Shown piece after piece: positions 6,226 to 47,308 of a DNA stretch of 64,000 nt. The stretch is taken from assembly GCA_965243545.1 (NCBI GenBank), contig OZ251573.1, positions 74,510-138,509 of the forward strand, read 5' to 3'. Origin of the DNA: Spirochaetia bacterium (GTDB taxonomy: Bacteria; Spirochaetota; Spirochaetia; SZUA-6; Bin103). Within the stretch, counting starts at the first letter, position 1. Every line of letters starts with the position of its first letter. A program made the translations under genes and the position numbers. A model generated the notes under the pieces. The model saw only the letters and a list, made by a program, of their open reading frames with translations. It did no database searches and had not been told where the DNA came from.

Positions 6226-6262
6226 GCATTGGCTATGCTATAGTAGGAGGAGGAGATACTGA
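6226..6262 (+). promoter_or_regulatory. putative extended -10 promoter (TGcTATAGT) and strong RBS (AGGAGGAGGAG) for the repeat-protein gene
   Basis: The sequence cattggctaTGcTATAGTaggaggaggagatactgaATG was read directly. No convincing -35 is present. Confidence 0.3.
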
Positions 6263-7150
6263 ATGGGAGACCCGGTGATGCTGCAGGAGCAGGATGTCGT
6301 CCGCATCGGAGACTACGTCAAGCCGTGGCTCCGGGAGCTGGTGGACCGCATGGCCCCGCGGGCGGAGATCGACGTCGGCCCTGCGCTCCTGGAGCGCATG
6401 GTTCGCGTCGAGGAGGAGCTCCGCGCCCAGCGGGAGCTGATGAACGAGCGCTTCGGGTTCATGGAGCAGCGTTTCAAGGCGGTCGACCAGCGTTTCGAGG
6501 CTGTGGACAGGCGGTTCGCGGAGTTGATCGCGCAGATCGACAAGCGGTTCGAGGCGATGGACCAGCGGTTGGCGGAGTTGATCGCGCAGATCGACAAGCG
6601 GTTCGAGGCGTCGGACCAACGGTTCGCTGAACGGCTCGCGGCGTCGGACAAGCGGTTCGAGGAACGGTTCGCGGCGTCGGACCAACGGTTCGCGGATTTG
6701 ACCGCGCAGATCGACGAGCGGTTCGCGGCGTCGGACAAGCGGTTCGAGGAACGGTTCGCGGCGTCCGACCAACGGTTCGCGGACTTGACCGCGCAGATCG
6801 ACGAGCGGTTCGCGGCGTCTGACAAGCGGTTCGCTGAACGGTTCGCGGCGTCCGACCAACGGTTCGCGGACTTGACCGCGCAGATCGACAAGCGTTTCGC
6901 GGCGTCGGACCAACGGTTCGCTGAACGGTTCGCGGCGTCTGACAAGCGGTTCGCTGAACGGTTCGCGGCGTCTGACAAGCGGTTCGCTGAACGGTTCGCG
7001 GCGTCTGACAAGCGGATCGCCGACCTGATCGCGCAGATGGACAAGCGGTTCGACGCGGTGGACAAGCGCTTCAACACGCTGACCTGGATGATCGGCTTGG
7101 GCTTCGTGGTCATCACGTCGTTGACGACGGTGTTCGCGCTGCTCGCCTAG
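6263..7150 (+). CDS. tail-anchored membrane protein made of about 20 tandem 11-residue (hendecad) repeats (consensus D[QKE]RF[AE][ED][RL][FT]A[AQ][SI])
   Basis: 295 aa with an N-terminal non-repeat head, then the long repeat run …DQRFAERFAASDKRFAERFAAS…, then a single C-terminal TM helix TLTWMIGLGFVVITSLTTVFALLA. It has a strong RBS. The antisense ORFs 6233-6913 and 6313-7116 are repeat artefacts. Confidence 0.7.
   Translation: MGDPVMLQEQDVVRIGDYVKPWLRELVDRMAPRAEIDVGPALLERMVRVEEELRAQRELMNERFGFMEQRFKAVDQRFEAVDRRFAELIAQIDKRFEAMDQRLAELIAQIDKRFEASDQRFAERLAASDKRFEERFAASDQRFADLTAQIDERFAASDKRFEERFAASDQRFADLTAQIDERFAASDKRFAERFAASDQRFADLTAQIDKRFAASDQRFAERFAASDKRFAERFAASDKRFAERFAASDKRIADLIAQMDKRFDAVDKRFNTLTWMIGLGFVVITSLTTVFALLA
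6470..7030. repeat. 33-bp tandem coding minisatellite (about 17 copies, e.g. gaccaacggttcgc(g/t)ga(a/c)…) encoding the hendecad repeats
   Basis: Near-identical 33-nt units are visible directly, e.g. cggttcgcggcgtc(t/g)gacaagcggttcgctgaa repeated. They are in-frame and lack the spacer structure of a CRISPR array. Confidence 0.8.
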
Positions 7151-7159
7151 GAATCGGCG

Positions 7160-7185
7160 GGAGACGCCTTGCGGCGTCCGCGTTG
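7160..7185 (+). terminator. stem-loop GGAGACGCC-ttgc-GGCGTCC just downstream of the repeat-protein gene (no U-tract)
   Basis: A perfect 7-bp inverted repeat lies between the gene's stop at 7150 and the convergent tRNA-Leu. It could terminate either transcript. Confidence 0.3.
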
Positions 7186-7200
7186 CCCCGAAGAGGACGT

Positions 7201-7284
7201 TGCCCGGAAGAGGACTCGAACCTCCACAGCCTTGCGGCCACTAGACCCTGAACCTAGCGTGTCTACCAATTTCACCATCCGGGC
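7201..7284 (-). tRNA. tRNA-Leu (anticodon CAG), class II with long variable arm
   Basis: The reverse complement is GCCCGGA-TG-GTGAAATTGGTAGACAC-G-CTAGG-TTCAGGG-TCTAG-(long variable arm)-GGAGGTTCGAGTCCTCT-TCCGGGC-A. The acceptor stem is a 7/7 match, the T-loop is TTCGAGT, the anticodon loop carries CAG, and position 37 is G. Confidence 0.85.
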
Positions 7285-32929: not shown

Positions 32930-34345
32930 GTGGCTGACGTGCCGGGCGCCGCGGAGCGGTTCCGCGAAGAGACCGATTCGCTCGGCGCGGTGCGCGTGCC
33001 CGCCGGCCGCTACTGGGGAGCGCAGACGGAACGGTCGCGCAACAACTTCCGCATCGGCGGCGAGCGCATGCCGGTCGAGGTGGTGCGCGCCTTCGGCATC
33101 GTCAAGAAGGCGGCGGCGATCGCCAACGCCGAGATCGGCGTGCTTGGAGCGGAAACGCGTGACCTGATCGTGCGCGCCGCCGACCAGATCATCGCCGGCG
33201 AGCTCGACGACCACTTTCCGCTGGTCGTCTGGCAGACCGGCAGCGGCACGCAGTCGAACATGAACGCCAACGAGGTGATCGCCAACCGCGCCATCGAGCT
33301 GGCCGGCGGCGAGCTCGGCAGCAAGACGCCCGTCCACCCCAACGACGACGTCAACCGGTCGCAGTCGTCCAACGACACCTTTCCGACCGCCATGCACGTG
33401 GCCGCCGCGGCGGCGTTGCGCGGGCGCCTGCTGCCGGCCGCGGCGGCGCTGCAACAGGTGCTGGAGGCCAAGCGCGACGCGTTCGCGTCGATCGTCAAGA
33501 TCGGCCGCACGCATCTGATGGACGCCGTGCCGCTCACCCTGGGCCAGGAGTTCTCAGGCTACGCGGAACAGGTCTCGCGCGGCCGGCAGCGAGTCGAGCG
33601 CGCGCTGCCCGGACTGTACGAGCTGGCGCTGGGCGGCACCGCGGTCGGCACCGGGCTCAACGCGCCGCCGGGGTTTTCCGAGCGGGTGGCGGACCGGATC
33701 GCGCGGCTCACCGGCATCCCGTTCGTCACCGCTCCCAACAAGTTCGAGGCGCTGGCCGCGCACGACGCGATCGTGGAGACGTCCGGCGCGCTCAAGACGC
33801 TGGCGGCCGCGCTGATGAAGATCGCCAACGACATCCGCTGGCTCGGTTCGGGGCCGCGCTCCGGCCTGGGCGAGCTGCGGTTGCCGGAGAACGAGCCGGG
33901 CAGCTCGATCATGCCGGGCAAGGTCAACCCCACGCAGTGCGAGGCGCTCACCATGGTCTGCGCGCGCGTGTTCGGCAACGACACCGCCATCACTGTGGCC
34001 GGCGCGTCCGGCGCGCTGGAGCTCAACGTCTTCAAGCCGTTGCTGATCGACAGCCTGCTGCAGTCGACCCGGCTGCTGGCCGACGGGATGGCCAGCTTTA
34101 CCGAGCATTGCGTGGCCGGCATCGAACCGGACACCGGCCGGATCGCGGAGCTGGTGGGCCGGTCGCTCATGCTGGTGACAGCGCTCAATCCGCACATCGG
34201 CTACGACAAGGCGGCGGCCATCGCCAAGGCCGCCCACCGCGAAGGCGTCACGCTCCGCCAGGCGGCGATCCGTAGCGGCCACCTCACCGCCGACCAATAC
34301 GACCGATGGGTCCGCCCCGAACACATGGTGAGCGAGTCGCCGTAG
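32930..34345 (+). CDS. fumC: fumarate hydratase class II
   Basis: [20 protein letters not shown] (fumarate lyase signature), [23 protein letters not shown] 32930 is preceded by GAGG. Confidence 0.9.
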
Positions 34346-34364
34346 CCAGAAATATGGCCCGGTG

Positions 34365-34943
34365 TCACGGCGCCGATGAACGGGCGGGAGCTTGGATGCG
34401 TTGAGCGAGATGGTCGAAGTCTTCCCGGCACTTCTGGCGAATCGCGCGAACGTTGCTGGCGGCCTCTTCTCCCAGACGCATGCGCCCTTTGCCCGGACCG
34501 TCGGCGACGCCCCGCTGCCGCGCCAGCACGGCGAAGTAGCGCTCCTTCACGGACACCTCGGCCCGTATTTCCGACCAGCGCCAATTGGACGGCAGCTTCA
34601 GTCCTGCGAGCGTCCAGGTTTCGAGCTCCTCCCATGCGTTTTCGGCCAGGAACCGTCGCCGTTCGCTGCCGAACTCCGCTTCGATATGATCGAGTCGGTG
34701 ACGGCGCGATGTTTCACCATCCCGGTCCACGCACAGGATGAACAGGTCGATCATCCCTTCGTAATCGTCGACGATCTCCCGTAGACATTCGTATTTCAGC
34801 GCCTCGCGGACGCCGCCGAGCAACGGATCACTGCAGACTTCAATGTCCGCCCGGATGTTCAGAGATCGAAAGAGCCGGCGAAACAGAGGGCGCAGGAGAT
34901 ACTGATCGTTGCGGAAGTCTTCCGGGATGATGAGCACTCTCAT
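34365..34943 (-). CDS. DUF4276-like protein with TOPRIM-type E…DxD signature (putative nuclease partner of the adjacent ATPase)
   Basis: MRVLIIPEDFRNDQ (conserved Glu), then about 65 aa later LFILCVDRDGETS (DxD), the TOPRIM spacing. The ATG forms an ATGA overlap with the upstream ATPase stop. GC is lower than in flanking genes. Confidence 0.65.
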   Translation of the reverse strand: MRVLIIPEDFRNDQYLLRPLFRRLFRSLNIRADIEVCSDPLLGGVREALKYECLREIVDDYEGMIDLFILCVDRDGETSRRHRLDHIEAEFGSERRRFLAENAWEELETWTLAGLKLPSNWRWSEIRAEVSVKERYFAVLARQRGVADGPGKGRMRLGEEAASNVRAIRQKCREDFDHLAQRIQAPARSSAP

Positions 34944-36211
34944 GAATCACGCTCGCCGTCAGCGTCCGAGCTGAACAGGATTGCGTTTTCCATCCAGTTC
35001 GACCGGTGGAGCCTTCCCAGGCCACGTGACCGGCGCAGTCGGTCCGCGTTGGGCAAGTCGGCCAGCGGGCGCACCACGGCGTCATCGGCGTCCGGCAGGC
35101 GGCATACGGCCGAGGTGTGCTTGAACGTGCGGTCGCCGACGAGCTCCAGCAGATCGGGCGAGTGGGTGGTGGTGACCACTTGGACATGGCCTTTCTCGGT
35201 CTGGTTTTCGATCAGGTCGATCAGCAGCCGCTGCCGCGCCGGGTGAATCCCGTTGTCGATCTCCTCGAACACGTACAGGCCGACAGGCTTGGGGCCGAGT
35301 AGAGCGGCCAGCATCGCGAGCATCCGCAACGTGCCGTCGGAGGCGGCATAGGACGATACGATCCGTCCGTTCCTCTCACGCAGTGCGAGCTGGATTCGTC
35401 CGGTTGTCGGATCGGTCGGAAACTCGAAGTCTACGACGTCCATCGGCGTCAACTCCCGTGTCCAATCGGTCAACGTGCGCTTACGTTCCGGGTCTGCGCA
35501 CACCGCTTTCAGCACCGTCGGCAGGTTCTCGCCTCGGTCACCCAACACTTTCTGTCCGGGAAACGCAGGTCGGCGCATGTGGTCCGGCGACAGGTCCAGA
35601 AACCGCATGTTGGAAAACGTCGTCGCGGCCTGCTCGGCCAACATCTTCTGCTGCCGGATAACGTGCTTGTGTTCACCGATCTGGCTCAGCGCCGGCTGGT
35701 CCGGCCTCACGGCGATCCGATGTCCGAGTTTCTTCTGATTCGGGCTTCTGCCCATACGGAGTAGCAGGTGATTGTGGTCGTCCTGATCTCGGACCCGATC
35801 TCCGGCGTCCGGATGGCTCGTGTAGATCGGTTCATAGCCTTCGACGAGGAGGCTCTCGACTTGAACAGTGAACACGCCCGCGTCCTCGGCACGGATGGAG
35901 ACCCCATAGGCAACCGGCACGTCGTTCAATCTCATGGTGACAAGCATGCCGAACGACGGCTGGCCGAATCTTGCGATTTCGTTCGGTTTACCGCGGATTG
36001 GTTGCCACTCGACTTGACCGCCGGCGCCGTACTTGCCGCCGATAATGTCCGCAAGCGCATACCCGCGCCCGATGCCGTGCAGGAACCGGAATGCGTCGCG
36101 GAGATTGCTCTTGCCGCTAGCGTTTGCGCCTACGATCACGGTGAACGGCCCTATAGCCAGCGTTTCGCTCACGAAGTTCTTGAAGTTGACCAGCTTCAGG
36201 GAGGTGATCAT
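34940..36211 (-). CDS. OLD/RecF-like ABC-type ATPase (AAA_21/AAA_15 family) of a two-gene defence module
   Basis: MITSLKLVNFKNF…IVGANASGKSNLRDAF (Walker A) … SDGTLRMLAMLAAL (signature-like) … LYVFEEIDNGIHP (Walker B) … TTHSPDLL (H-loop). It is intact at 423 aa. ATG 36211 is in the same frame as a truncated ygjP-like remnant upstream. Confidence 0.75.
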   Translation of the reverse strand: MITSLKLVNFKNFVSETLAIGPFTVIVGANASGKSNLRDAFRFLHGIGRGYALADIIGGKYGAGGQVEWQPIRGKPNEIARFGQPSFGMLVTMRLNDVPVAYGVSIRAEDAGVFTVQVESLLVEGYEPIYTSHPDAGDRVRDQDDHNHLLLRMGRSPNQKKLGHRIAVRPDQPALSQIGEHKHVIRQQKMLAEQAATTFSNMRFLDLSPDHMRRPAFPGQKVLGDRGENLPTVLKAVCADPERKRTLTDWTRELTPMDVVDFEFPTDPTTGRIQLALRERNGRIVSSYAASDGTLRMLAMLAALLGPKPVGLYVFEEIDNGIHPARQRLLIDLIENQTEKGHVQVVTTTHSPDLLELVGDRTFKHTSAVCRLPDADDAVVRPLADLPNADRLRRSRGLGRLHRSNWMENAILFSSDADGERDS

Positions 36212-36571
36212 TCTGGCGTTACCATCCTTACCAGTCCAGGCCGGGCCGCGTTGGCGAAGATCTTCGCGGCGGCGTTCGTAGTCGGGGAGGACGCGGCCGA
36301 CGGCCTGCCAGTAGTCGCGGCCGTGGCCGGGGTGGCGCAGGTGCGCCAGCTCGTGGACCACGACGTAGTCGACCAGGCGCATGGGAGCCTGGATGATACG
36401 CCAGTTGAGGCGGATGGCGCCATTGCGGTCGCAGCTGCCCCACCGCTTCCGCTGATTGGCGATCACGACGCGCGGCATCGGGACGCCGGCCTTGGCGCGC
36501 CACGCCGCCACCCGTTCCGGCAAGCGCTCGGCGGCGCGCCGGCGGTACCAGGCGACCAGGGCGGCGCGCAC
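36212..36571 (-). pseudogene. YgjP/WLM-like zinc metallohydrolase (DUF45) remnant, N-terminally truncated and read-through-fused in frame to the ATPase ORF
   Basis: …RKRWGSCDRNGAIRLNWRIIQAPMRLVDYVVVHELAHLRHPGHGRDYWQAVGRVLPDYERR is the HExxH-containing C-terminal two-thirds of a DUF45 protein. The N-terminal 60 or so residues are absent and no stop codon precedes the ATPase start. Confidence 0.5.
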
Positions 36572-36689
36572 GTGCGCCGTGAGATCCTCGTCGTCCGGCG
36601 CGGGGACGTGCAGCCAACCGCCGCGCAGTGTGGCGTCGCCTGTCGCGCCGGCCGTGACCTTCAGGCGATAGCGCCGGCCCAGAGTCGTC

Positions 36690-37688
36690 GGTAATCACAC
36701 AGTTGATCTGTTGGTTGGTGCAGCATCTCTCCCCGGCGATTCCGATCTTACCTATAGTTGAACCAATGCAGGTTACCATGACAGCTCCGGGTGGAATTTC
36801 ACGGACCTGAGAGAGACCTTCCTCCGAGACGTTGCGGCCGGTTATGTTGACTCTCTTGGTCCTTCCAAGATCGGCTGGCGTAACAAAAGGAATCGTACCG
36901 TTCCAGAAATCATGACTGCCAGTGCTCGGCGTACCTCCAGTTACCACTTTGCCAATTTCTCCAATGGTGTTTACGACCCACCCATTCTCGCCGGTCCCCG
37001 TCCTCTTGAATTGTGTGTGCCTTCCACGCAGGCTACGTGTAAAGAGTTCCTGCATCACGCCGCGCTTAACGATCTGCGCTTGGTCGACGGCCGCCTGAGT
37101 CTTCTCTATGGAATCATCCACCGAAGAAAGGACCGCGGCAATCTTGCGTTGCTCTTTCGGTGGAGGAAGCGAAAGCTCCAACGTGTGAAGGTCGGCTTTG
37201 CTCACCGCGGAGAACGTGCTCCCCTGAGAGACACGGACGAGATCAGGCACCGCCCGAGAAAGCGCATGCCACAGGAACGCCGGGTCCACTCCGTCCGCAG
37301 CTATAGCCGAAAGCCCTCGTCCGATCGCTAACTGTTCATGAGCTCGGTTCAGCGCCCCGACCGGAGCCCGAACGCTGAGAAGAATCGCGCCCTGCGCGGC
37401 CTGCTTGGGCGGATCGGTGCAGAACTTCGTGGGTCGCGGGCTTCTAAAGCCAAACTCGGCGTTACCCTGGACGAAAGGAAGTCCGATCCCGTCCTCATTA
37501 ACGGTAGTGGATGGCGGCGACTGGCCCATGGTGATAGCCGCAACCTCGCCGAGGAACGCCGGTACCCATGCCGGACCACTACTGCCGATCCGCCGACGGT
37601 GGATCATGCCGTCAAGGTTACCACAGGGCGGGCCGGCCTGGCCAAGGGCGTCGTAGAGATCGTAGAGGGGCCGCAGAGACCTTGCCAT
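36690..37688 (-). pseudogene. hsdS: type I restriction-modification specificity subunit HsdS, C-terminally truncated
   Basis: MARSL…WVPAFLGEVAAITMGQSP (TRD1) …LPPPKEQRKIAAVLSSVDDSIEKTQAAVDQAQIVKRGVMQELF (central conserved helix) …WVVNTIGEIGKVVTGGTPST…CIGSTIGKIG (TRD2). The frame then degenerates at about 36690 without the second conserved helix. It is AT-richer than the flanks. Confidence 0.65.
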
Positions 37689-37802
37689 GACGGGATGGGT
37701 CGGGCCGTTTTTCAGCGGAGCATGGACCGAGGGCGGCGGGTTGGTGTATACCGCCCACATCGTCTACCTGCTCCCAGAATCACCCGGCCCGGACGCTACC
37801 CG

Positions 37803-40800
37803 ATGATGCTCCCAGGCGGCTCCGCGAACAAGTTGGGCAACCGCTACGAGAAGTGGTGGACCGTGTCGCAGCTCGTCCGAATGCTGGGCGGCGAGGTGGA
37901 CGCTATCCGCATTGAAGACCCTGATGCGGAGAAGGCGGAGTTCGTTGTGACCGTGGGCTCGCGCAGGGAGCTACATCAGGTGAAACGGGTCGCCCCGAAA
38001 GACAATTGGACACTCACAGCGCTTAACGCCGACGGGCTCCTTCGGAAAATCGGCGAGCAGTTGGCTAACAACAACGTCCGGTTCGTCTTTGCGTCGGGTA
38101 GCGGCGCACGTCATCTGTCCAAGCTCTGTGACGCGGCGAATTCCGCGGAATCCACGGAGGAGTTCGAACGCTTCTCTCACGCAGCCAAGGAGGAGCGGAG
38201 TCAACCGTTCAAGAAGCTGCTTCTATACTCAGCGGGGAAGCCAGGGGTGTTGATAGTTGACCAGCTGGACGCGGTGAGCACCATGTCCGGCAGGGGCTCT
38301 GATGCGTTCGATCTGGTAGAACAGCTTCTACACGAGGCACGCGGAACGCGCGCGCGGGTCACAATCCACACGGTCGTTGTCTGTAGGGCCTTCGACTGGG
38401 AGCACGATCCGCGCCTCCGGAAGCTCATGCCTCCTGGGAAAGATCCCGTCGAAGTCACCGAATTCTCCGTGGACGAAGTGAAGACGATTCTCGCCAGAGC
38501 AGACTTCGATCTTGGACTGTTTCGAAGCCGTCAGTTGGAATTGCTGAGAGTTCCCCAGAACCTCTTGCTCTTCCTGGAGGCTGGATTTGAAAAGTCGCAC
38601 AAACCCGAGTTCGGTTCGGCGACGGATCTGTTCGATCGGTATTGGAACGAGAAGAGGCAGGCGGTCGCCGCACGGGTCGCGCAACCGGTGGATTATTGGA
38701 TGGATGTAGTGGACACGCTCTGCGACGAGATGACTGCCAATCAGCAGCTTTCGGTTCCGCGGGAGAAACTCGACAAGATTCCGCCGGCATACTTGGATCA
38801 ACTGGCATCGGAAGGCGTGCTCACTGTTGCCGGCAACCGCTACGGGTTTGGCCATGAGAGCTTCTTTGACTACTGTTTTGCGCGTGTGTTCTTCCGTCGG
38901 TCAGAATCGTTGGTGTCGTTCCTCAAGGAGTCGGAACAGCACCTGTTCCGTCGCGCCCAGGTGCGGCAGGTACTGGCGTATTTGCGTGACCACGATGCTG
39001 ACCGGTACATTCGGGAACTTGGTGGTTTGCTCGCAGACGCCGACGTCCGTACGCATATCAAAGACCTTGCCTTTGCCTTCCTCGCCGATGTCACGGAGCC
39101 AACCGAGCAAGAGTGGAACATCTGGAATGGGTGGATCCCGCCTGCGATAGAGGCCATCAAGGACGGAGCGCGAAACTCGAATGAGCTGTCAGTGCTCGCG
39201 TGGCGGCGATTCGCTGGATCACCGTCGTGGTTTGCGGATGCGAACCAGCGTGGCCTGATAAGGACATGGCTATCGTCAGGCAGCGAACGTCTCGCCGATA
39301 TGGCGGTGAGCTACCTGACCGGCCACCAGCGCCACTCGCCGGATCAAGTCGCCGCCATCATGGAACCGTACGCCGGTCGCGGCGGCGTGTGGGCGCAGAG
39401 GCTGCGCTCTTTAGTGGAACGAGCCCAGCACCACGCCAGTCGCCGCTTCTTTGATTTCGTTCTGCGTCTGGTAGCAAACGGCACGCTCGACGAGGCGCGT
39501 AGGCCGTCCGGGGCGGACGGCACGTTCTGGCGCATGTTCTACAACCTGGGCGAGGAGCGCCCTGAGTGGGTGCCGGAGCTTCTGGCCGATTACCTCCGGC
39601 GTCGCCTTGCGGTGGTCCGCCGTGGCGGCGATGTGGTGAATGAACGCATGATCGGCTACGACGACTACGCAGGACGGCTGTTTGCCAAATCGGCAGCAAG
39701 CGCTCCCGCCGAGTTCGTTCGGCGTGTGCTTCCTCCGGTTCTTGAAATTGCTGACTTGGCCGTGGTTGGTGACGAACGTCCGAAGCGGGACACCGTGTGG
39801 CCAACTCGCATAGCGACGGAACATCCCCGGGGCGACCAAGCGTGCGTAATGGGCTTGGCGAGCGCGTTGGCTGCCGTTGCAAGTCAGGAAACCGCGAGGC
39901 TACAGGATGTGGTCGGTGACCTGCGCCGTCGCGACACGTACATCGCGAATTATCTCCTGCTGTCTCTCTACGGCGGGGCTTCTGCGCGATACGCGGACGA
40001 GGCGGCGTTGTTACTCTGCGACGAACCGTGGCGATTTCAATGCGGATTTGCCGGCAGTTCGAATTGGTGCGCGGTAGAACTGATTCGGGCGATAGTTCCA
40101 CATTGCGCTACGAGCAATCGTATGCTACTTGAAAGAGCAATAATGGGTTACACATCTCGCTCGGAAGGTACCGTAGACGGCTTGAAGTACAGACAGATCG
40201 GGCGGGCGAGGTTCAACTTGCTCTCGGCGATACCCGGAGAACTCCGCAGCAGGCGCGCAAACTCCCATTTCGATGATGCAGAGGTTTCAAGCAGTCTCAA
40301 ACTCCGGGTCTGCGGCAAGGCGTTTGCTGAGTCGCGTGTGCACTGCGGTAGGGCGATCGCGGATGTTCTCGGCGCCATTGGAGATTTGCTTCCGGAGCGC
40401 GCAATCGGAATGCTCGACTGGCTCGCTACGGAACACGACGATCCAGTCAAGGAAGCGTGGAGGGAGGAGGCCGGTGGAGGCCAAAGCTACTACAACGGCG
40501 ACATCCACATGAACGGCATAAACACGGCGCGCGGGAGAGCAGCCGAAGCAGTTCAGGCTCTCATTCTGAAGGACGCCGCATACGTCACACGGTTTCGCCC
40601 GACTATTGAAAGGATGATACGCGATCGGAGCGCCGCGGTCCTCTCTTGTGTCGCGGGTACGCTCCGGGCGGTAGCGTCGCGTGACCCTGCGCTCGGTGTG
40701 TCGTTGTTCTTGCGGATGAATCTGGACGAGGAACGGTTGCTCGCAACTCGACACGTAACCGGGATGATCAGGAGCAATTTGCGGCACAGCCGAACGTATG

Positions 40801-40829
40801 ATCCGGTCGTCAGAACCGGAAGTCCGTGA
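37803..40829 (+). CDS. large uncharacterised protein: N-terminal PD-(D/E)xK-like (Mrr/DUF4297-type) nuclease-like domain, degenerate NTPase-like core, C-terminal HEAT/TPR-like alpha-solenoid (Avs/STAND-like architecture)
   Basis: N-terminus MMLPGGSANKLGNRYEKWWTVSQLVRMLGGEVDAIRIEDPDAEKAEFVVTVGSRRELHQVKRV (hh-ED … E-hh … QVK pattern). Then VRFVFASGSGARHLSKL (a P-loop-like segment lacking Lys) and GVLIVDQLDAV (Walker-B-like). A further 600 or more aa are Trp/Leu/Arg-rich helical repeats. ATG 37803 has a tandem ATG. It lies between the hsdS and hsdM remnants on the opposite strand. Confidence 0.55.
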   Translation: MMLPGGSANKLGNRYEKWWTVSQLVRMLGGEVDAIRIEDPDAEKAEFVVTVGSRRELHQVKRVAPKDNWTLTALNADGLLRKIGEQLANNNVRFVFASGSGARHLSKLCDAANSAESTEEFERFSHAAKEERSQPFKKLLLYSAGKPGVLIVDQLDAVSTMSGRGSDAFDLVEQLLHEARGTRARVTIHTVVVCRAFDWEHDPRLRKLMPPGKDPVEVTEFSVDEVKTILARADFDLGLFRSRQLELLRVPQNLLLFLEAGFEKSHKPEFGSATDLFDRYWNEKRQAVAARVAQPVDYWMDVVDTLCDEMTANQQLSVPREKLDKIPPAYLDQLASEGVLTVAGNRYGFGHESFFDYCFARVFFRRSESLVSFLKESEQHLFRRAQVRQVLAYLRDHDADRYIRELGGLLADADVRTHIKDLAFAFLADVTEPTEQEWNIWNGWIPPAIEAIKDGARNSNELSVLAWRRFAGSPSWFADANQRGLIRTWLSSGSERLADMAVSYLTGHQRHSPDQVAAIMEPYAGRGGVWAQRLRSLVERAQHHASRRFFDFVLRLVANGTLDEARRPSGADGTFWRMFYNLGEERPEWVPELLADYLRRRLAVVRRGGDVVNERMIGYDDYAGRLFAKSAASAPAEFVRRVLPPVLEIADLAVVGDERPKRDTVWPTRIATEHPRGDQACVMGLASALAAVASQETARLQDVVGDLRRRDTYIANYLLLSLYGGASARYADEAALLLCDEPWRFQCGFAGSSNWCAVELIRAIVPHCATSNRMLLERAIMGYTSRSEGTVDGLKYRQIGRARFNLLSAIPGELRSRRANSHFDDAEVSSSLKLRVCGKAFAESRVHCGRAIADVLGAIGDLLPERAIGMLDWLATEHDDPVKEAWREEAGGGQSYYNGDIHMNGINTARGRAAEAVQALILKDAAYVTRFRPTIERMIRDRSAAVLSCVAGTLRAVASRDPALGVSLFLRMNLDEERLLATRHVTGMIRSNLRHSRTYDPVVRTGSP

Positions 40830-41382
40830 AGCTGGCGCACGCATGGTAAGCCTTGCCGCGTTGGAAAAACAAAGTGCAGCGGATCTCGAGGACGAGGTGT
40901 TGCGTGGTGACGTCAGTCACCGGCTTGGCGTCGCTCAGGTCGCTTCCGCTAACATAACGTTGACCGATTGTCGAGCGTGGTGTGAAGCGAGGATAGCGGT
41001 CCTATTCAACGATAGCGATGCGCGCGTCCGGCGCGAAGCGGCGTCATGTTTCTCTCGGTTGACAGATGATGAGGCCCTCGACACATACAACGATCTGATC
41101 ACGGCGTTTTGCGAGAGCGCGGCGTTCGAGAGCGGCTCGCTCTGGCTCGTTAGCGCACTGGAGGAATCGTTGGAGCGTCTTCCGGGGATGACGTGCATGG
41201 TCTGTGAACGGTACCTTGATCGTGGCGCCGGCGAGAGGTTCGATGTCGCCAAACTCATATTTCGGACGTACCAGCAACATCAGAACGACGAATGGACAAG
41301 GCCGTCGTTGGACCTGATAGATCGCCTGTGTCTGGGGCGGCATCTCGGGGCGGAGCACGAGCTGGAGCAGTTCGATCGGTAA
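40798..41382 (+). CDS. HEAT-repeat-like fragment; probable frameshifted C-terminal continuation of the preceding large gene
   Basis: …SEPEVREAGARMVSLAALEK…NDSDARVRREAASCFSRLTDDEAL… (HEAT-like s.d.VR..Aa..L units). It overlaps the upstream ORF by 32 nt in the +1 frame. Confidence 0.35.
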   Translation: MIRSSEPEVREAGARMVSLAALEKQSAADLEDEVLRGDVSHRLGVAQVASANITLTDCRAWCEARIAVLFNDSDARVRREAASCFSRLTDDEALDTYNDLITAFCESAAFESGSLWLVSALEESLERLPGMTCMVCERYLDRGAGERFDVAKLIFRTYQQHQNDEWTRPSLDLIDRLCLGRHLGAEHELEQFDR

Positions 41383-41533
41383 GCGGGAGCACGGACGACT
41401 TTGAGCGCGGGCGGCGCAGTGCGGTAGGGCTGATGGACTACGGGTGGGTGTGCTCGGCGCGATGCGGCCGCGGCTGGTAGGGGCAGTGACCAACGCGCGG
41501 TCAGCAATCGGCTGCAACACAACGCGGCGGCGC

Positions 41534-41826
41534 ATGGACCAGGAGCGGCGGTTGGTGTACACTGCCTACATGGCCTACACCGACAGGATCACCATCGAGC
41601 CGGGCAAGCGTGGCGGCAAGCCCTGTATTCGCGGGATGCGGATGACGGTATACGCATTCGCGGGACGCGGGTCACGGTAATCGAAGTACTCGAATCCCGC
41701 GGCTCGGGGATGACGCAAGAACAGACTCTGGCGAACTTTCCGGACCTGCAAGCGGCCGACGTTCAGGCATGCCTGGAGTACGCCGCGGACCGCGAGCGCA
41801 AGATGGTGGCGATCCCGCGGGAGTAA
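41534..41826 (+). pseudogene. DUF433-family (antitoxin-like) gene disrupted by a 29-nt diverged tandem duplication
   Basis: Frame 1 reads …AYTDRITIEPGKRGGKPCIRGMRMTVYAFAGRGSR then a stop. The next frame, from 41656, reads IRGTRVTVIEVLESRGSGMTQEQTLANFPDLQAADVQACLEYAADRERKMVAIPRE then a stop. Removing copy 1 (41627-41655, attcgcgggatgcggatgacggtatacgc, versus copy 2 attcgcgggacgcgggtcacggtaatcga) restores an intact DUF433 protein. Confidence 0.55.
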
Positions 41827-41941
41827 CGCGGCGGCGGTGGGTGGCGCCAGGAGACGGATCGTCGACGTCGGGGCCCTCTCGGGCGGCTTGCCACGCACCG
41901 CGTATGCGCGTATTCTCTGTTGCCGAACGGATGGGGAGACC

Positions 41942-43012
41942 ATGAGTACGCTCCAAGAGCAGGTAACGGATCTGAGCTACCGGACCGATCGACTGGAAGT
42001 GCTGTGCGAACGGCTCCTGGACAGCATCGATCAGACCGTCCGGGAAATGAAAGCGGAAGGCGCCAGAGACCGGGCGGCAGCTGCGCGAGCACGAGAGGAA
42101 GACCGGGCGGAAGCTGCCAGAGCACGGGCGGAGGACCGGGCGGAAGCTGCCAAAGCGTGGGAAGCGGCTGCCAAAGCACGAGAGGAAGACCGCGCGGAAG
42201 CTGCCAAAGCGCGGGAGGCGGCTGAGCGAGCGCGGGCGGAGGACCGGGCGGCAGCTGCGCGAGCACGAGAGGAAGACCAAGCGGAAGCTGCCAAAGCACG
42301 GGAAGCGGCTGAGCGAGCACGGGCGGAGGACCGGGCGGAAGCTGCCAAAGCGTGGGAAGCGGCTGCCAAAGCACGAGAGGAAGACCGGGCGGAAGCTGCC
42401 AAAGCACGGGAAGCGGCTGAGCGAGCACGGGCGGAGGACCGGGCGGAAGCTGCCAAAGCACGGGAAGCGGCTGACAGAGCGCGAGAAGCGGCTGACAAAG
42501 AACGGAAAGAGGACCGGAGGGCGTGGAACCGGCGCTGGGGTCGGTTAGCCAACAAGATGGGCACCGTCGTGCAGGACATCGTCGCTCCGAGCCTGCAGCG
42601 TATCGCGCGCGACGAATTGAACTGCGGCGAGGAACAGTCCTTCAGCGTCTCCGTGTCCCGCTACCGTAGCGATGACCGGCACTACCGCCGCGAGTTCGAC
42701 GCGCTCTACGTCGGGGCGCGCGGGGTGCTGCTCAACGAGACCAAGTCCACGGCCCACAGCGAGTATGCAACGCGCTTCGTCCAGTTCCTGAAAAGCGGTG
42801 AGTTCGCGCTCTACTTCCCGGAGCACCGGCATCTGAAGCTGGTGCCGGTGTTCTCGTCGCTGCGTCTGCCCGACCATCTGATCCCGTTTCTGACCAAGAA
42901 CGGAATCTATGCGGTGAGCATGGGCGAGGAAACGATGCAGGTGCTCAATCGGGATGCGATAGCCGCCCGCGAGCGCAACTCGCCCGCTGCGTCCGCCGGC
43001 AGCGTGAAGTAA
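41942..43012 (+). CDS. coiled-coil protein with C-terminal PD-(D/E)xK-like nuclease domain (DUF3782-like)
   Basis: MSTLQEQVTDLSYRTDRLEVLCERLL…, then about 150 aa of AEAAKAREAAERARAEDR-type repeats encoded by 33/66-bp periodic DNA repeats at 42040-42500, then REFDALYVGARGVLLNETKS (D … E-x-K) and a further conserved C-terminal segment. Confidence 0.6.
   Translation: MSTLQEQVTDLSYRTDRLEVLCERLLDSIDQTVREMKAEGARDRAAAARAREEDRAEAARARAEDRAEAAKAWEAAAKAREEDRAEAAKAREAAERARAEDRAAAARAREEDQAEAAKAREAAERARAEDRAEAAKAWEAAAKAREEDRAEAAKAREAAERARAEDRAEAAKAREAADRAREAADKERKEDRRAWNRRWGRLANKMGTVVQDIVAPSLQRIARDELNCGEEQSFSVSVSRYRSDDRHYRREFDALYVGARGVLLNETKSTAHSEYATRFVQFLKSGEFALYFPEHRHLKLVPVFSSLRLPDHLIPFLTKNGIYAVSMGEETMQVLNRDAIAARERNSPAASAGSVK
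42040..42500. repeat. 33/66-bp periodic coding repeats (coiled-coil region of the DUF3782-like gene)
   Basis: Repeated gaagctgccaaagcacgggaagcggctgagcgagcacgggcggaggaccgggcg-type units. On the opposite strand they generate the spurious ORFs 41763-42461 and 42031-42579. Confidence 0.7.
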
Positions 43013-43064: not shown

Positions 43065-44310
43065 TCAACCGACGTCATATCCGAGCTCTGCCAGGTAGCG
43101 GTTCATCGTTGCCTCGGCGGCGGCGCGCTCGCGCTCCAGCTCCCGCAGCTTGCGCACGGCGTCCGCCACGTCGATCCGTTCCTCCTCGTCGGCGTTGTCC
43201 ACGTAGCGGCTGATGTTCAGATTCCAGTCGTTTTCTTCGATCTCGGCGACCGGCACGACCCGTGCGTACTTCTGTACGTCAGCGAAGGCGTGGAACGTGC
43301 CGGCGACGTGTTCGACGTCCTGCTGGCGCAGGCGGTTCTGGTTGCTGCCCTCCTCGAACTCGGCGGAGGCGTCGATGAACAGCACCTTGCCGCGGCGCGG
43401 CGCCGGCTTGTCCCGGTTGAGCAGCAGGATGGAGGCCGGGATGCCGGTGCCGTAGAACAGGTTGGGCGCCAGGCCGATCACCGCCTCGAACAGGTCCTCC
43501 CGGAGCATCCCCTGGCGAATCTTGCCCTCGGCGCCGCTGCGGAACAGGACGCCGTGCGGCATCACCACGCCGAGCCGGCCGGTCCGGTTCAGCACCGCCA
43601 CCATGTGCTGCACGAACGCCAGGTCGCCCTTGGTCTTCGGCGGCAGGCCGAACCGGAAGCGCCCGTACCCGTCGCTCTCGGCCACCTCGCGGCCCCACTC
43701 GTCCAGGCTGAACGGCGGATTGGCGATCACCCGGTCGTATGCGCGGCGTGTAGAACTCGCCGCCCTTCTTGCCCGCGTCGTCGGCGAACTGCTTGATCAG
43801 GTACTCGTAAGCGCGGCCGAGCAGATCGGGCTCCGCCATGCGGTCGTTGCGGAGCGAAACCTGCGAGAAGTGCTGCACCAGCCGGGCCAGCACGGTGTCG
43901 CGGTTGCGCGCGTCGCCGAGCTTGCGTTCGTCGTTGAAGTCGATACCGGCGAGCACGCCCTCCAACGCGGCGTTCTGTTCCTCCAACGCCGAGCACGCCT
44001 TGTTGAGGGTCTCGCCGATGTCGGCGGCCGCGGCACCGATGGCGCCCCACCGCGCCCGCTTCGGCACGAAGAACTGGTGCTCGTCCGGATCGGTCCGGGC
44101 CGCGTCCGCAGGCACGCCGTCGGCGATCAGCTTCTCCGCCTCCTCCTCGAACCGGTCCGACAGCCGCTTCAGGAACAGCAGGCCGAAGATGTAGGTCTTG
44201 TAGTCGCTGCTGTCGATCGATCCGCGCAGGATGTCGGCCGCCGCCCAGAGGTACTGTTCGAGCTGCGCCACGCTCAGCACGCCGGCCGCCGGCGCGGCCG
44301 TGTTCCGCAC
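43065..44310 (-). pseudogene. hsdM: type I restriction-modification methyltransferase HsdM with internal deletion of the catalytic core (frameshifted)
   Basis: The N-terminal frame reads …LSVAQLEQYLWAAADILRGSIDSSDYKTYIFGLLFLKRLSDRFE…LLGRAYEYLIKQFADDAGKKGGEFYTPR (HsdM_N plus the start of the methylase). Immediately afterwards, in another frame, it reads (Y)DRVIANPPFSLDEW…VLFIDASAEF…NLNISRYV (motif IV to the C-terminus). About 130 aa, including the AdoMet motif I, are missing between them. Confidence 0.7.
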
Positions 44311-44563
44311 CGGGCGGGGCGAGGACGATGCGGGGGCCGGCGCCCCCCGAACGCGGCGGCTCACTCGTTGCTCCCCGGCGGGCGGTTTTGCATGGCGGCC
44401 CCATTCAACGACATTCCCGGCCCGTGGTCCAGTCGCTGAATAGGCCAACGCGGCCGAAGACCGTGGGAGTGACAGCGTGACGGCGCCTCATCGGATGCGG
44501 TAGAATGGACGGCCGGAAGCTCGCGCGGAGCGAGATGGCCGGCCGATAACGGGAGGTGCGCCG

Positions 44564-46299: not shown

Positions 46300-47151
46300 A
46301 TGGGCCAGCGTCCCGACTCGTCCGAGCGTCCCACCGCGTCCGAGCGGTTCTTCTTCGACACCAACGGCTATCTGTTGCTGGAGGGCGTGCTCGACATCGG
46401 CCACGTCGCCCGGCTGCGCGCCGCGCTGGACGCGGCCGTCGAGCGGCGCCGCGCGCTGGCGCGCACCGGCAGCGAGGTGTTCCGCGCCACCCAGGAACTG
46501 GAGAACGGCGCGCGCATCTTCTACCTGCTGGCCGAGGACGAGCTGTTCCTGGACCTGATCGACCTGCCGGCGGTGATGCCGTACGTCACCGGGCTGCTCA
46601 ACGAGGCGCCGCACTTCCACGCCTCCGACGCGTTCCGGGAGCGCGGCCCCAGCGCTCACCCGCCCGGCTGGCACGTCGACGGCGCCGATGACGGCTACCG
46701 CCGGCTCGGTCCTTACGTCCCGCTCCTGCAGCTCAAAATCGCCTACTTCCTGTCTGACATGAGCGCCCCGGACCAGGGCAACCTGACCGTGGCGCCGGGG
46801 TCGCACCGCGCGCAGGTCCCGCCCGGCGAGCGCGACCTGCAGGGGTTCGAGTCGATGCCGAGCGCGGTGCAGCTCCGCTGCCCGCCGGGGTCGTGCGTGA
46901 TGTTCCACAACGCGCTCTGGCACACGCGCGGACCCGCGCGGCGCGCCGACGGCGAGCGGGTCATCCTCTATTACGCCTACGAGCACCCGTGGATGGCGGC
47001 GAGCCCGGAGCCGACCTCCTATCCGCCCAGTTTCTACGCGGCGCTGTCGCCTGCCCGCCGGCGGTTCTTCCACCCGGTGGTGCTGCCCAAGGCCCGCCGG
47101 GCGCTGCCAAGGCATGTGGCGGGACAGGCGCGGACTGACCATGTCAAGTAG
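46300..47151 (+). CDS. second phytanoyl-CoA dioxygenase (PhyH) family oxygenase, tandem paralog
   Basis: MGQRPDSSE…FFFDTNGYLLLEGVL…GWHVDGADD…VAPGSHRAQ…FHNALWHTRG. ATG 46300 is 8 nt after the preceding stop. Confidence 0.8.
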   Translation: MGQRPDSSERPTASERFFFDTNGYLLLEGVLDIGHVARLRAALDAAVERRRALARTGSEVFRATQELENGARIFYLLAEDELFLDLIDLPAVMPYVTGLLNEAPHFHASDAFRERGPSAHPPGWHVDGADDGYRRLGPYVPLLQLKIAYFLSDMSAPDQGNLTVAPGSHRAQVPPGERDLQGFESMPSAVQLRCPPGSCVMFHNALWHTRGPARRADGERVILYYAYEHPWMAASPEPTSYPPSFYAALSPARRRFFHPVVLPKARRALPRHVAGQARTDHVK

Positions 47152-47308
47152 CCGAAAACTGGAAGCGCACCTGCAGCATTTGGCGACCAGAGAGGACATC
47201 GAGAAGAGTGCGAGGAACACCATGAAATGGGTGGTCGGGATAATGATCACGTCGCTGATTGCGGCTGTGGCGGCTACGGCGGCCGTCATGGGTGCGGTGG
47301 TCAACTAA
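47141..47308 (+). CDS. small tail-anchored protein, minimal paralog of the hendecad-repeat protein at 6263-7150
   Basis: MSSSRKLEAHLQHLATREDIEKSARNTMKWVVGIMITSLIAAVAATAAVMGAVVN. Its C-terminus shares the T-x2-W-x2-G-x2-ITSL TM motif with …FNTLTWMIGLGFVVITSLTTVFALLA of the long repeat protein. It overlaps the PhyH-2 stop by 11 nt. Confidence 0.45.
   Translation: MSSSRKLEAHLQHLATREDIEKSARNTMKWVVGIMITSLIAAVAATAAVMGAVVN

Follow-up and report, generated by a model that had tools for sequence, protein, structure and literature searches.

The window, by which is meant the whole stretch of 64,000 nucleotides analysed here, comes from a Spirochaetia genome with 70% GC, and it carries a chromosomal gene for a tail-anchored, repeat-built protein whose neighbours are an amidohydrolase gene, a tRNA gene, and an Hsp70-like gene (Table 1). 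The coding ORF of 295 aa proposed in an earlier sequence-only reading was confirmed, and it is a real gene, with a strong ribosome-binding site, a GC3 of 0.89, and selection on its ends. In particular, the GC contents of the three codon positions (0.66, 0.40, and 0.89, respectively) resemble those of the adjacent genes; the syntenic ortholog in L073, the closest relative, has a shorter Shine-Dalgarno sequence, TAGGAGG, at the same position; and comparison with three relatives gives dN/dS ratios of about 0.1 in the membrane anchor and 0.1–0.3 in the start of the long helix, the non-repeat ends of the protein being under purifying selection. No second copy of the gene is present within the window. 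L073, L074, and L075 all share the tRNA-Leu(CAG) gene with 100% identity; of the three, only L073 has the tail-anchored gene.

Table 1. Coordinates of the features discussed (positions of the window)
Feature	Position	Strand	Basis or remark
Tail-anchored protein gene	6263..7150	+	ORF, 295 aa, stop codon included
Shine-Dalgarno AGGAGGAGGAG	6245..6255	+	7 nt 5' of ATG; read from sequence
N-terminal cap domain, residues 1–67	6263..6463	+	AF2 model, conserved columns
Repeat array, residues 68–266	6464..7060	+	Unit parse; 13 hendecads and 8 heptads, each beginning D-x-R-F
Three 87-bp (29-aa) higher-order repeats	6647..6907	+	81–84/87 nt identical pairwise
Three successive 33-bp units	6908..7006	+	DQRFAERFAAS, then DKRFAERFAAS twice; 31–33/33 nt identical, final two identical
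Last unit and membrane anchor DKRFNTLTWMIGLGFVVITSLTTVFALLA	7061..7147	+	Hydropathy
tRNA-Leu(CAG)	7201..7284	-	ARAGORN; 51 bp 3' of gene; context only, marks synteny breakpoint
55-aa tail-anchored ORF	47141..47308	+	Member of a separate small family; N-terminally shorter than most homologs

Architecture and periodicity of the 295-aa protein

The protein consists of an N-terminal cap, a long helix of D-x-R-F units, and a membrane anchor that closes the chain. In the AF2 model (mean pLDDT 84.5; above 90 across most of the array and in the 80s at its C-terminal end), the cap comprises a helix at residues 9–30 and a loop at residues 31–39, followed by the start of a helix that runs continuously from residue 40 to residue 294; the model is that of a monomer, and its helix is hence no proof of a coiled coil. 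The cap also contains the family signature LLERMVRVEEELxAQRELMxERF. Hydropathy bore out the single C-terminal TM helix and the tail-anchored architecture previously read from the sequence: the TM helix spans approximately residues 272–295 (nt 7076–7147), with zero residues beyond it, and the Kyte-Doolittle 19-mer mean reaches 2.2 in the anchor, as against a maximum of 0.26 in residues 1–260. This lone C-terminal TM helix, with no further hydrophobic segment, places the protein in the C-tail-anchored class. The TM helix is rich in Gly, Ser, and Thr. With its G-x-G and TSLTT motifs, the anchor is better conserved than any other part of the protein (dN 0.03–0.04 vs dS 0.28–0.37). Neither a signal peptide nor a twin-arginine motif was found at the acidic N-terminus, MGDPVMLQEQD; since Lys/Arg residues, moreover, precede the TM helix, the protein probably resides in the cytoplasmic membrane with its N-terminus in the cytoplasm and nothing exposed outside.

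The sequence-only reading had described the body as about 20 hendecads encoded by a nearly perfect 33-bp minisatellite. The body is indeed built of repeats, and the unit types then named (DQRFAERFAAS, DKRFEERFAAS, and DQRFADLTAQI) all occur in the protein, but the units are not purely hendecads, eight of the 21 having seven residues. The simple minisatellite did not survive analysis of the DNA either: the best period found by TRF is 87 bp (29 aa = 11+11+7), with further periods of 21, 33, and 54 bp, and the matches within arrays are 63–88% (79–88% in the main 33-, 54-, and 87-bp arrays). The 33-bp units, some of which are identical, form two classes, with a between-class identity of only 20–23/33. 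The repetition is nonetheless far above chance, with TRF scores up to 562; the DNA repeats of the array are 83–97% identical overall, and the three 87-bp copies 93–97%. The latter have the form D-K-R-F-x-E-R-F-A-A-S / DQRFADLTAQI / D-x-R-F-A-A-S; three synonymous and zero non-synonymous changes separate copy 1 from copy 2, and the other pairs have a dN of 0.04 vs a dS of 0.13–0.19.

The hydrophobicity spectrum of the array peaks at 3.63 residues, and the unit parse, with 199 residues in 55 turns, gives 3.62 residues per turn. An unstrained helix has 3.63 residues per turn, heptads 3.5, and hendecads 3.67 (PMC4786415, PMC9858780); the apolar period along the continuous predicted helix lies between the last two values, as in mixed heptad/hendecad repeats. 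All hendecads share Asp1, Arg3, and Ala9, and 19 of the 21 units have Phe4; the apolar residues form a narrow seam of Phe4, position 7/8, and position 11, with the invariant Asp1 and Arg3 beside it. This seam is thinner than in textbook coiled coils because several core positions of the window allele are polar or charged, with Arg at position 7 and Ser at position 11 in 7/13 hendecads each. From the periodicity, the chains may be predicted to pair or bundle as a nearly straight homo-oligomeric coiled coil.

Relatives, length variation, and the small ORF

At E ≤ 0.001, 602 homologs were obtained among 8000 candidates scored, and a search with the N-domain matched 141 of 1.84 billion representatives, nearly all at, or a few dozen residues from, the protein N-terminus. 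About 140 clusters at 50% identity combine the cap, D-x-R-F units, and the anchor. The shared signature, which the window protein displays in full, is YVKxxL ... ERMVRVEEEL ... RF, followed by D-x-R-F units 7 or 11 residues apart and a C-terminal TM helix; in the relatives, spacing analysis shows the units to be mostly heptads. The 150 sampled members with the cap motif and a C-terminal TM helix are 75–222 aa long (median 165), the residues beyond the TM segment numbering 1 in the median and 8 at most, and the window protein is 73 aa longer than any of the others. The genes of the family lie on chromosomes, and their hosts are diderm bacteria, sponge-associated ones among them; the close relatives derive from MKWU, a metagenome of the sponge Aplysina aerophoba.

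The family is unannotated and unnamed; it matches nothing in Pfam, NCBIfam, or the PDB, and no literature on it was found. For the 295-aa protein, NCBIfam gave nothing near the cut-offs, and the PDB gave no relative by sequence, by N-domain profile, or by Foldseek of the AF2 model. Pfam matches to KxDL (31.1 bits vs a cut-off of 27.2), Sec3_CC, Baculo_PEP_C, DUF7310, and DUF16 were rejected as coiled-coil periodicity noise, because the matches of dozens of unrelated coiled-coil families are confined to the repeats, with the cap and the anchor left uncovered by all of them. The reservation that the family might turn out to be a known, characterised one, which would have lowered its novelty, was not realised; the family is uncharacterised. 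Across at least five different genomic contexts, including amidohydrolase/tRNA-Leu, PhyH-sulfatase/GH32, abhydrolase/TRAP transporter, PFK/GspE, and others, there is no recurring partner gene. The Hsp70-like neighbour, a conceivable partner if the case resembled that of tail-anchored J-proteins, was discarded: there is no J-domain, and in L074 and L075 that gene adjoins tRNA-Leu without the tail-anchored gene. Similarity between a 391-aa repeat protein and archaeal DUF3782/PD-(D/E)XK fusions was not significant.

The length polymorphism anticipated from the DNA repeats was borne out in silico by the L073 ortholog and by alleles of a second locus. The L073 protein has 154 aa and 6 units, vs 295 aa and 21 units in the window, and its ends are 93% and 91% identical to those of the window protein; its units are of the RITERFEAS type, which indicates that each lineage has homogenised its units separately. 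At the abhydrolase/TRAP-transporter locus, alleles with flanks 96–100% identical have arrays of 107, 107, 114, 114, 125, and 143 aa, differing in steps of 7, 11, and 18 residues, and a member in L038, with 104 aa and only 2 units, retains a cap and anchor almost identical to those of long forms. ERFAAS and DLTAQI have 8 and 3 copies, respectively, in the window protein and no more than one in each of the other members; the window allele, the longest member found, apparently arose by amplification of two unit types in its own lineage. Among about 170 members, no array was seen to be frameshifted or degenerate. Mis-assembly could affect the window array as well as the short one of L073.

The 55-aa ORF had been proposed as a one-unit paralog of the 295-aa protein with a common T-x2-W-x2-G-x2-ITSL anchor. 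The motif holds for the 55-aa ORF, whereas the 295-aa protein (G-L-G-F-V-V-ITSL) needs a three-residue insertion to fit it. The similarity between both proteins is slight: BLASTP gives 11/41 identities with one gap (pairwise E = 0.004), tblastn within the window E = 0.04–0.46, the longer homolog P0122 only E = 0.007 against the 295-aa protein, and hhalign of both family alignments a probability of 14.8% over 34 columns. On the hhalign and tblastn values, and given that the 55-aa ORF has a family of its own, paralogy is not supported. This comprises eight homologs of 47–89 aa with 66–100% identity, among them P0121 of the public protein collection, which is identical to the ORF; four homologs of 77–89 aa have a conserved PG-rich N-terminal region, and identity to the 83-aa P0122 begins at LEAHLQ, with no remnant of a P0122-like N-terminus 5' of the ORF. 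All eight members match Pfam XhlA (PF10779) below threshold (best E = 0.015), the ORF itself scoring 13.7–14.2 bits against a cut-off of 34.7, and DUF1640 (PF07798) gives 13.2 bits against 33.5. In PHROG, the ORF matches the XhlA-type phrog_1193 'hemolysin' (E = 0.0022) and phrog_6701 (E = 0.0024). The small family of the ORF is thus a separate one with a weak likeness to XhlA.

Comparison with known systems

Stalks of the tail-anchored, coiled-coil kind form an architectural class already known from Bdr, DUF1640/MCUR1, XhlA, and the ZorA tail. Bdr (Borrelia direct repeat) proteins have repeats 11 residues long and a C-terminal anchor. As in the present family, they are small inner-membrane proteins whose body consists of tandem short helical repeats (the KID repeats), and the variation is illustrated by bdrT, whose copy in one strain has about 9 repeats, as against about 6 in an ortholog that is otherwise 99.4% identical (PMC3303823, PMC4370689). 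In both cases, the repeat number varies between paralogs and strains. Nevertheless, the repeat core is D-x-R-F here and KID/KIE in Bdr, which leaves the present protein outside that family, and Pfam scans of the 295-aa protein and its relatives returned no Bdr-type family; moreover, Bdr is described as unique to Borrelia and is located on cp32 and lp28-type plasmids, the cp32s being thought to be prophages, whereas the present genes lie on chromosomes and encode a conserved N-terminal cap.

In CCDC90-like/DUF1640 proteins (MCUR1, CCDC90B, and prokaryotic homologs; PF07798), a head at the N-terminus is followed by a long homo-oligomeric coiled-coil stalk and then by one TM helix at the C-terminus. 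According to Adlakha et al. (2019, Structure 27:464), as relayed in PMC7279490, they are conserved in prokaryotes and organelles. The overall plan of head, stalk, and C-terminal TM helix is the same, with stalk oligomerisation predicted in the present case; the large family, however, has no PF07798 match, its cap is a two-helix element instead of a globular head, and its stalk is a recent, length-variable tandem array. XhlA, a family of small tail-anchored proteins of phages and prophages, likewise combines a short coiled coil, a Trp, and a C-terminal TM helix, but the 295-aa family has no match to it, the 55-aa family reaches only about 14 of the 34.7 bits needed, and neither gene lies in a lysis-cassette context within the window.

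ZorA of the anti-phage system Zorya is also membrane-anchored and has a very long, non-heptad coiled coil reaching tens of nm into the cytoplasm; in its tail, five chains form a right-handed bundle about 70 nm long, a length that is thought to matter (PMC11946911). PADLOC matched the 295-aa protein to seven ZorA models (best E = 1.7e-9), with the match restricted to the tail, positions 264–508 of 692. Homology to ZorA was rejected, each model being matched by only 1–3 of 21 family members; because the match is not common to the family, it reflects the length and composition of one allele. Furthermore, the window protein has one TM helix and no MotA/ExbB-type membrane domain, its anchor lies at the opposite end of the chain, and zorB, zorC, zorD, and zorE are not seen among the neighbours. 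Scy and FilP are long Ala-rich rods in which hendecads occur among, or replace, heptads, with little or no supercoil (PMC9858780); they differ in being soluble actinobacterial cytoskeletal proteins with a DivIVA-like N-terminal motif and without an anchor or D-x-R-F, and no sequence relationship to the 295-aa protein was found.

Competing explanations and the proposed stalk

The explanation favoured here, and held to be rather probable, is that of a C-tail-anchored protein of the cytoplasmic membrane in which a cap, a stalk of D-x-R-F helical units, and a TM anchor form a straight, oligomeric coiled coil that can be expanded unit by unit. The sequence-only reading had likened the repeat to apolipoproteins, perilipins, and synuclein or to right-handed coiled coils. 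In the lipid-surface model, for which LEA proteins are a further parallel, an amphipathic 11/3 helix would lie flat on lipid and coat or scaffold a membrane or droplet. The 11-residue units, an Ala content of 21%, a mean muH of 0.44, and a weak match to Pfam Apolipoprotein (E = 0.019) agree with such a helix, although that match amounts to 15.1 bits against a cut-off of 90, the apolar face comprises only positions 4, 7/8, and 11 with the invariant Asp adjoining it on the wheel, and there is no interfacial belt of Lys, a residue that makes up 5.5% of the array. In addition, the heptads (8/21 units) would turn the 11/3 face away from the surface, the relatives are mostly heptads, and the unbroken run into the TM helix in the AF2 model directs the rod off the membrane and not along it. 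The lipid-surface assignment was consequently given up as very unlikely; with a period of 3.63, an almost untwisted coiled-coil stalk fits better. Equally improbable is an XhlA-like, holin-accessory, or otherwise membrane-perturbing protein, in which the coiled coil would drive a TM oligomer to form a lesion or pore in lysis or as a toxin. The high conservation of the anchor and its two motifs would suit this role, as would the matches of phrog_6701, which consists of phage proteins of unknown function, to the 295-aa protein (E = 3e-19) and to the 55-aa ORF, and that of phrog_1193 to the latter; the phrog_6701 match, however, falls in the repeat region (residues 59–104), the 295-aa protein and 20 relatives have no Pfam XhlA match, GC3 is host-like, and no prophage or lysis cassette appears among the contexts examined. 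Three IMG/VR scans gave no true family member; a phage origin was dismissed, since the scans yielded only giant-virus-like contigs with an N-terminal TM segment and DKRFEQV heptads, in which nothing but the repeat module is shared.

An assembly artefact, with a true gene resembling the 154-aa ortholog, would account for a 600-bp array in which units are up to 97–100% identical, for a length 73 aa beyond any other member, and for the absence of the exact protein from a collection of 15 billion proteins. That absence, nevertheless, is explained by the window genome itself not being included there, and the best match of the Hsp70-like neighbour in the collection is also just 92%; the reading frame is unbroken and the conserved ends are correct, the units show many private and ordered differences, with two classes and a higher-order structure, instead of being identical copies, and other alleles vary unit-wise in the same manner, so that an artefact is highly improbable. 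More weight, although still on the unlikely side, is given to an array length without function, in which the cap and the anchor, together about 100 aa, would be the essential protein, the repeats would be a tolerated expansion that arises by slippage or unequal recombination and drifts neutrally, and the 295-aa form would be an extreme allele. The 2-unit member in L038 with its conserved ends and the free variation of unit number among orthologs and near-identical alleles are consistent with this, and recombination between DNA repeats would preserve the register without selection. On the other hand, the differences between repeat copies are mostly synonymous, as between higher-order copies 1 and 2, Asp1, Arg3, Phe4, and Ala9 are retained in nearly all units, and the arrays of about 170 members are free of frameshifts and degeneration. 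Together, these observations show the units to be under selection as helix, which does not by itself make their number important.

In the proposed coiled-coil stalk, the cap would be held about 30–35 nm off the membrane in the window protein and roughly 10–25 nm in typical relatives. The array would behave as an accordion: the 21-, 33-, and 87-bp repeats would recombine or slip against one another, and whole units would be added or removed. Since only whole units are gained or lost, the hydrophobic register would never be broken. The best inference from these data is a cytoplasmic spacer or tether of variable length, and a role as spacer or ruler is plausible for the 295-aa protein. A more specific version, a previously undescribed cytoplasmic 'measuring rod' in which a straight, unsupercoiled coiled coil is anchored in the inner membrane through a specific TM bundle and the distance of the conserved two-helix cap is set by unit number and retuned from about 5 to about 35 nm through unit-wise recombination, is speculative and unlikely. 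Arrays ranging from 2 to 21 units among relatives may mean that length is not functionally tuned at all.

By itself, the family opens no long-standing question, and no partner is evident. It does provide a natural series in which one cap and one anchor are joined by 2–21 helical units and, for the coiled-coil field, a natural case in which the ratio of heptads to hendecads brings the periodicity to that of the relaxed helix (3.62–3.63). For annotation, the implication is that repeat numbers from short-read assemblies should not be trusted. In terms of cell biology, diderm bacteria, including those associated with sponges, may have in this family a membrane tether of tunable length; if the measuring rod were true, it would position a partner or internal structure relative to the membrane, or exclude one, and paralogs within one genome would supply different lengths.

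Repeat units and predicted structure

The sequence-only reading had described a 295-aa ORF built of repeats and ending in a tail anchor, and this is confirmed: AGGAGGAGGAG lies 7 nt 5' of the ATG, GC by codon position (0.66/0.40/0.89) follows the pattern of the neighbouring genes, and the repeat itself accounts for the long ORFs on the opposite strand. Cutting the protein at every D/E-x-R-[FLI] divides residues 68-266, the array, into 13 eleven-residue and 8 seven-residue units; the repeats therefore stand, but not as the proposed series of about 20 hendecads. In agreement with this split, Tandem Repeats Finder returned periods of 21, 33, 54 (7+11) and 87 bp (11+11+7), so that the 33-bp minisatellite of that reading is present without being the best description, the top-scoring array having the 87-bp period (5.1 copies, score 562). 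Nor is the DNA repeat nearly perfect, since the arrays match at 63-88% (79-88% for the main 33-, 54- and 87-bp arrays); the three 87-bp higher-order copies share 93-97% identity. Two classes of 33-bp unit can be told apart, class A, encoding D-x-R-F-A-[DE]-L-[IT]-A-Q-I, and class B, encoding D-x-R-F-x-E-R-[FL]-A-A-S, with 85-100% identity within a class versus only ~60-70% between classes.

Every hendecad has Asp1, Arg3 and Ala9, and Phe4 occurs in 19 of the 21 units, while positions 7 (Leu or Arg), 8 (Phe, Ile, Thr or Leu) and 11 (Ser, Ile or Met) vary. On a helical wheel the units display a narrow apolar seam, formed by hendecad positions a, d/e and h and by heptad positions a and d, and flanked by one acidic and one basic residue; the last 24 residues of the protein are its sole strongly hydrophobic stretch. 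An AlphaFold2 prediction based on an alignment of 21 family sequences (mean pLDDT 84.5, >90 across most of the array) consists of a helix (residues 9-30), a loop (31-39) and one unbroken helix (40-294). The hydrophobicity spectrum has its peak at 3.63 residues, and the array counts 8x2 + 13x3 = 55 turns for 199 residues, or 3.62 per turn; in the literature, heptads have a period of 3.5, hendecads one of 3.67 and an unstrained helix one of ~3.63 (PMC4786415, PMC9858780). We infer a nearly unsupercoiled parallel bundle, in which the modelled helix would run ~34 nm from residue 40 to the membrane.

A family with variable array length

The protein belongs to a family nobody has named. Its sequence gave only coiled-coil noise over the repeat region in Pfam, no match near cut-off in NCBIfam and none in the PDB, and neither its conserved N-terminal cap (residues 1-67), used as a profile against the PDB, nor its AlphaFold2 model, searched with Foldseek, found a match. 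In a large protein database, 602 of the 8000 candidates scored matched at E<=0.001; the best are 162-222 aa long and are mostly unnamed or called 'hypothetical', a few bearing generic labels assigned automatically. They have in common the cap (xxLxxEDVGRIGEYVKPWLRE...LLERMVRVEEELKAQRxLMDERF), a variable number of DKRFEAV / DKRFEDLIAHT-type units and an almost invariant anchor, RFxTLTWMIGVGFVVITSLTTVFALLA. A cap-only search of 1.84 billion cluster representatives found 141 proteins (21 at E<=1e-10), all small and almost all with the cap at or near the N-terminus; distant members show the same order of parts, a cap, heptads and hendecads of the D-x-R-F type, and a TM helix at the C-terminus. The spacing between successive R-F motifs in family members is almost always 7 or 11 residues, and in 150 sampled members length is 75-222 aa (median 165), with a median of one residue after the TM segment. 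In comparisons with three relatives, the first 35 residues have a dN/dS of 0.4-0.65, the helix start 0.1-0.3 and the anchor ~0.1, which marks the anchor as more than a greasy tail. The named sources are Spirochaetaceae and Spirochaetota MAGs, Desulfosoma, Tectomicrobia, Magnetaquiglobus, Methylomarinum and Halochromatium; the metagenome MKWU, of the sponge Aplysina aerophoba, supplies close relatives.

The length polymorphism foreseen from the sequence was borne out. The syntenic contig L073, reached via the adjoining Hsp70-like gene, carries in order the amidohydrolase (91% aa identity), the tail-anchored gene, tRNA-Leu(CAG) (100%) and the Hsp70-like gene (92%). Its 154-aa ortholog is identical at 65/70 cap residues and 43 of the last 47, and has an array of 6 units (58 aa) versus 21 (199 aa) in the window. 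Its hendecads read D-Q-R-I-T-E-R-F-E-A-S versus D-Q-R-F-A-E-R-F-A-A-S in the window, so that units have been homogenised separately in each lineage, which argues against simple assembly collapse. No other member has more than one copy of ERFAAS (8 in the window) or of DLTAQI (3 in the window), and the window expansion is thus lineage-specific; it arose through duplications of 87 and 33 bp, the copies of which show mainly synonymous differences, and the resulting allele is 73 residues longer than any other seen. A second locus (abhydrolase / gene / TRAP transporter) has six alleles with flanks 96-100% identical and arrays of 107, 107, 114, 114, 125 and 143 aa, differing by 7, 11 and 18. A minimal member, a 104-aa protein with cap (70% identical to the window cap), two units and anchor (L038, positions 210-524; A. 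aerophoba metagenome, MKWU01082164.1), offers a useful natural 'no-stalk' control.

Other loci and related repeats

Features of the window
Feature	Position	Strand	Remark
ORF, 295 aa	6263..7150	+
17-bp tandem duplicate of tRNA-Leu(CAG) 3' end	7181-7215		absent from L073
tRNA-Leu(CAG)	7201-7284	-
Hsp70/MreB-like ATPase, 472 aa	7471-8889	+	matches only part of Pfam HSP70 model
Low-GC stretch	~34000-42000		GC 60-63% vs ~70% elsewhere
ORF, 1163 aa	37338-40829	+	within low-GC stretch
391-aa repeat protein	41837-43012	+	7/11-residue helical array; repeats 42053-42509
Type I restriction-modification methylase (HsdM_N + N6_Mtase)	43065-44448	-	split in two overlapping ORFs, 43279..44448 and 43065..43730
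55-aa ORF	47141..47308	+	real, conserved small gene

The 55-aa ORF had been proposed as a paralog of the repeat protein. Both genes do encode a coiled coil followed by Trp and a TM helix with ITSL in it, but their similarity is weak (11/41 identities with a 3-residue gap, window-wide tblastn E=0.04-0.46 and an hhalign probability of 14.8% between the two family alignments) and does not establish common descent. Its homologs (47-89 aa) comprise one identical 55-aa protein and seven at 66-88% identity, and all eight family members match Pfam XhlA below threshold (best E=0.015, ~14 bits versus a cut-off of 34.7); PHROG 'hemolysin' phrog_1193 is matched at E=0.0022. Four homologs (77-89 aa) have a longer N-terminal region, of which the window ORF lacks ~30 residues: the PhyH gene upstream ends right where it begins, the 83-aa homolog P0122 is matched only from LEAHLQ onwards, just past that gene, and no remnant of the longer N-terminus was found upstream. 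GC3 is 0.73 versus 0.9 or more in neighbours, and the ORF could be a copy that was truncated or recently gained.

The duplicated tRNA-Leu end is precisely where synteny with relatives is lost; two other relatives' contigs (L074, L075) keep the tRNA and Hsp70-like gene, with other genes replacing the amidohydrolase and tail-anchored gene, which suggests that the region beside the tRNA is variable. The widely conserved ATPase (1099 matches at E<=1e-20; JGI label 'hypothetical chaperone protein') stays beside tRNA-Leu in three related contigs.

The low-GC stretch may be a defence or mobile island; its 1163-aa ORF, in which Pfam finds no domain, has a match to PDC-M54A, a candidate defence protein of PADLOC (E=7.7e-14). 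The split methylase, which could reflect a frameshift, a pseudogene or a sequencing error, directly adjoins the 391-aa protein, whose units (REEDRAEAAKA / REAAERA / WEAAAKA) have the same DNA periods, 21/33/54/87 bp, as the 295-aa gene. The ~150 aa after its array match nothing in Pfam, NCBIfam or PHROG; the protein's architecture recalls archaeal DKRFEA repeat-DUF3782/PF07788 fusions, without significant similarity. In Asgard archaeal MAGs, four proteins (P0075, P0088, P0097, P0112) have arrays of the type MDKRFEALQQQ / NKRFEESDQRLKELIDS fused to C-terminal DUF3782 (PF12644) and PF07788 domains, so the same repeat type serves unrelated domains as a stalk. In small proteins of two low-GC IMG/VR viral contigs, giant-virus-like in look (L030 4911-5267, L033 4857-5144), a hydrophobic segment at the N-terminus precedes 3-6 exact DKRFEQV heptads, so the D-K-R-F-E-Q-V module can also have its anchor at the other end.

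Function and relation to known architectures

The best reading is an N-in tail-anchored oligomer that holds its cap at a unit-set distance from the membrane. The C-terminal helix would insert the protein N-in, oligomerisation would proceed along the D-x-R-F seam and probably also through the conserved TM helix, and unit-wise recombination would reset the distance between cap and membrane. The main rival is a neutral accordion, in which array length does not matter. A helix lying on the lipid surface, as first suggested from the 11-residue periodicity, is less likely: the seam is narrow with charged residues on its flanks, any 11/3 face is broken by the heptads, which predominate in relatives, and the helix continues straight into the bilayer. 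No partner gene was found in five or more unrelated neighbourhoods of family members, no prophage or defence island among the contexts examined, and no true family member in IMG/VR.

The protein matches several ZorA models in their tail part (best E=1.7e-9), but each of these models matches only 1-3 of 21 relatives, which points to resemblance and not homology. The ZorA tail, a right-handed coiled coil of ~70 nm that is rooted in the inner membrane and extends into the cytoplasm (PMC11946911), is nevertheless a useful analogy. The architecture likewise resembles that of Borrelia Bdr proteins, the DUF1640/MCUR1 family and XhlA, and the coiled-coil geometry that of Scy/FilP, although on testing the protein proved a member of none of these, ZorA included. 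It is thus an undescribed family inside a known architectural class, offering a neat natural series of lengths and the 3.63 periodicity of an unstrained helix, with nothing surprising in kind.
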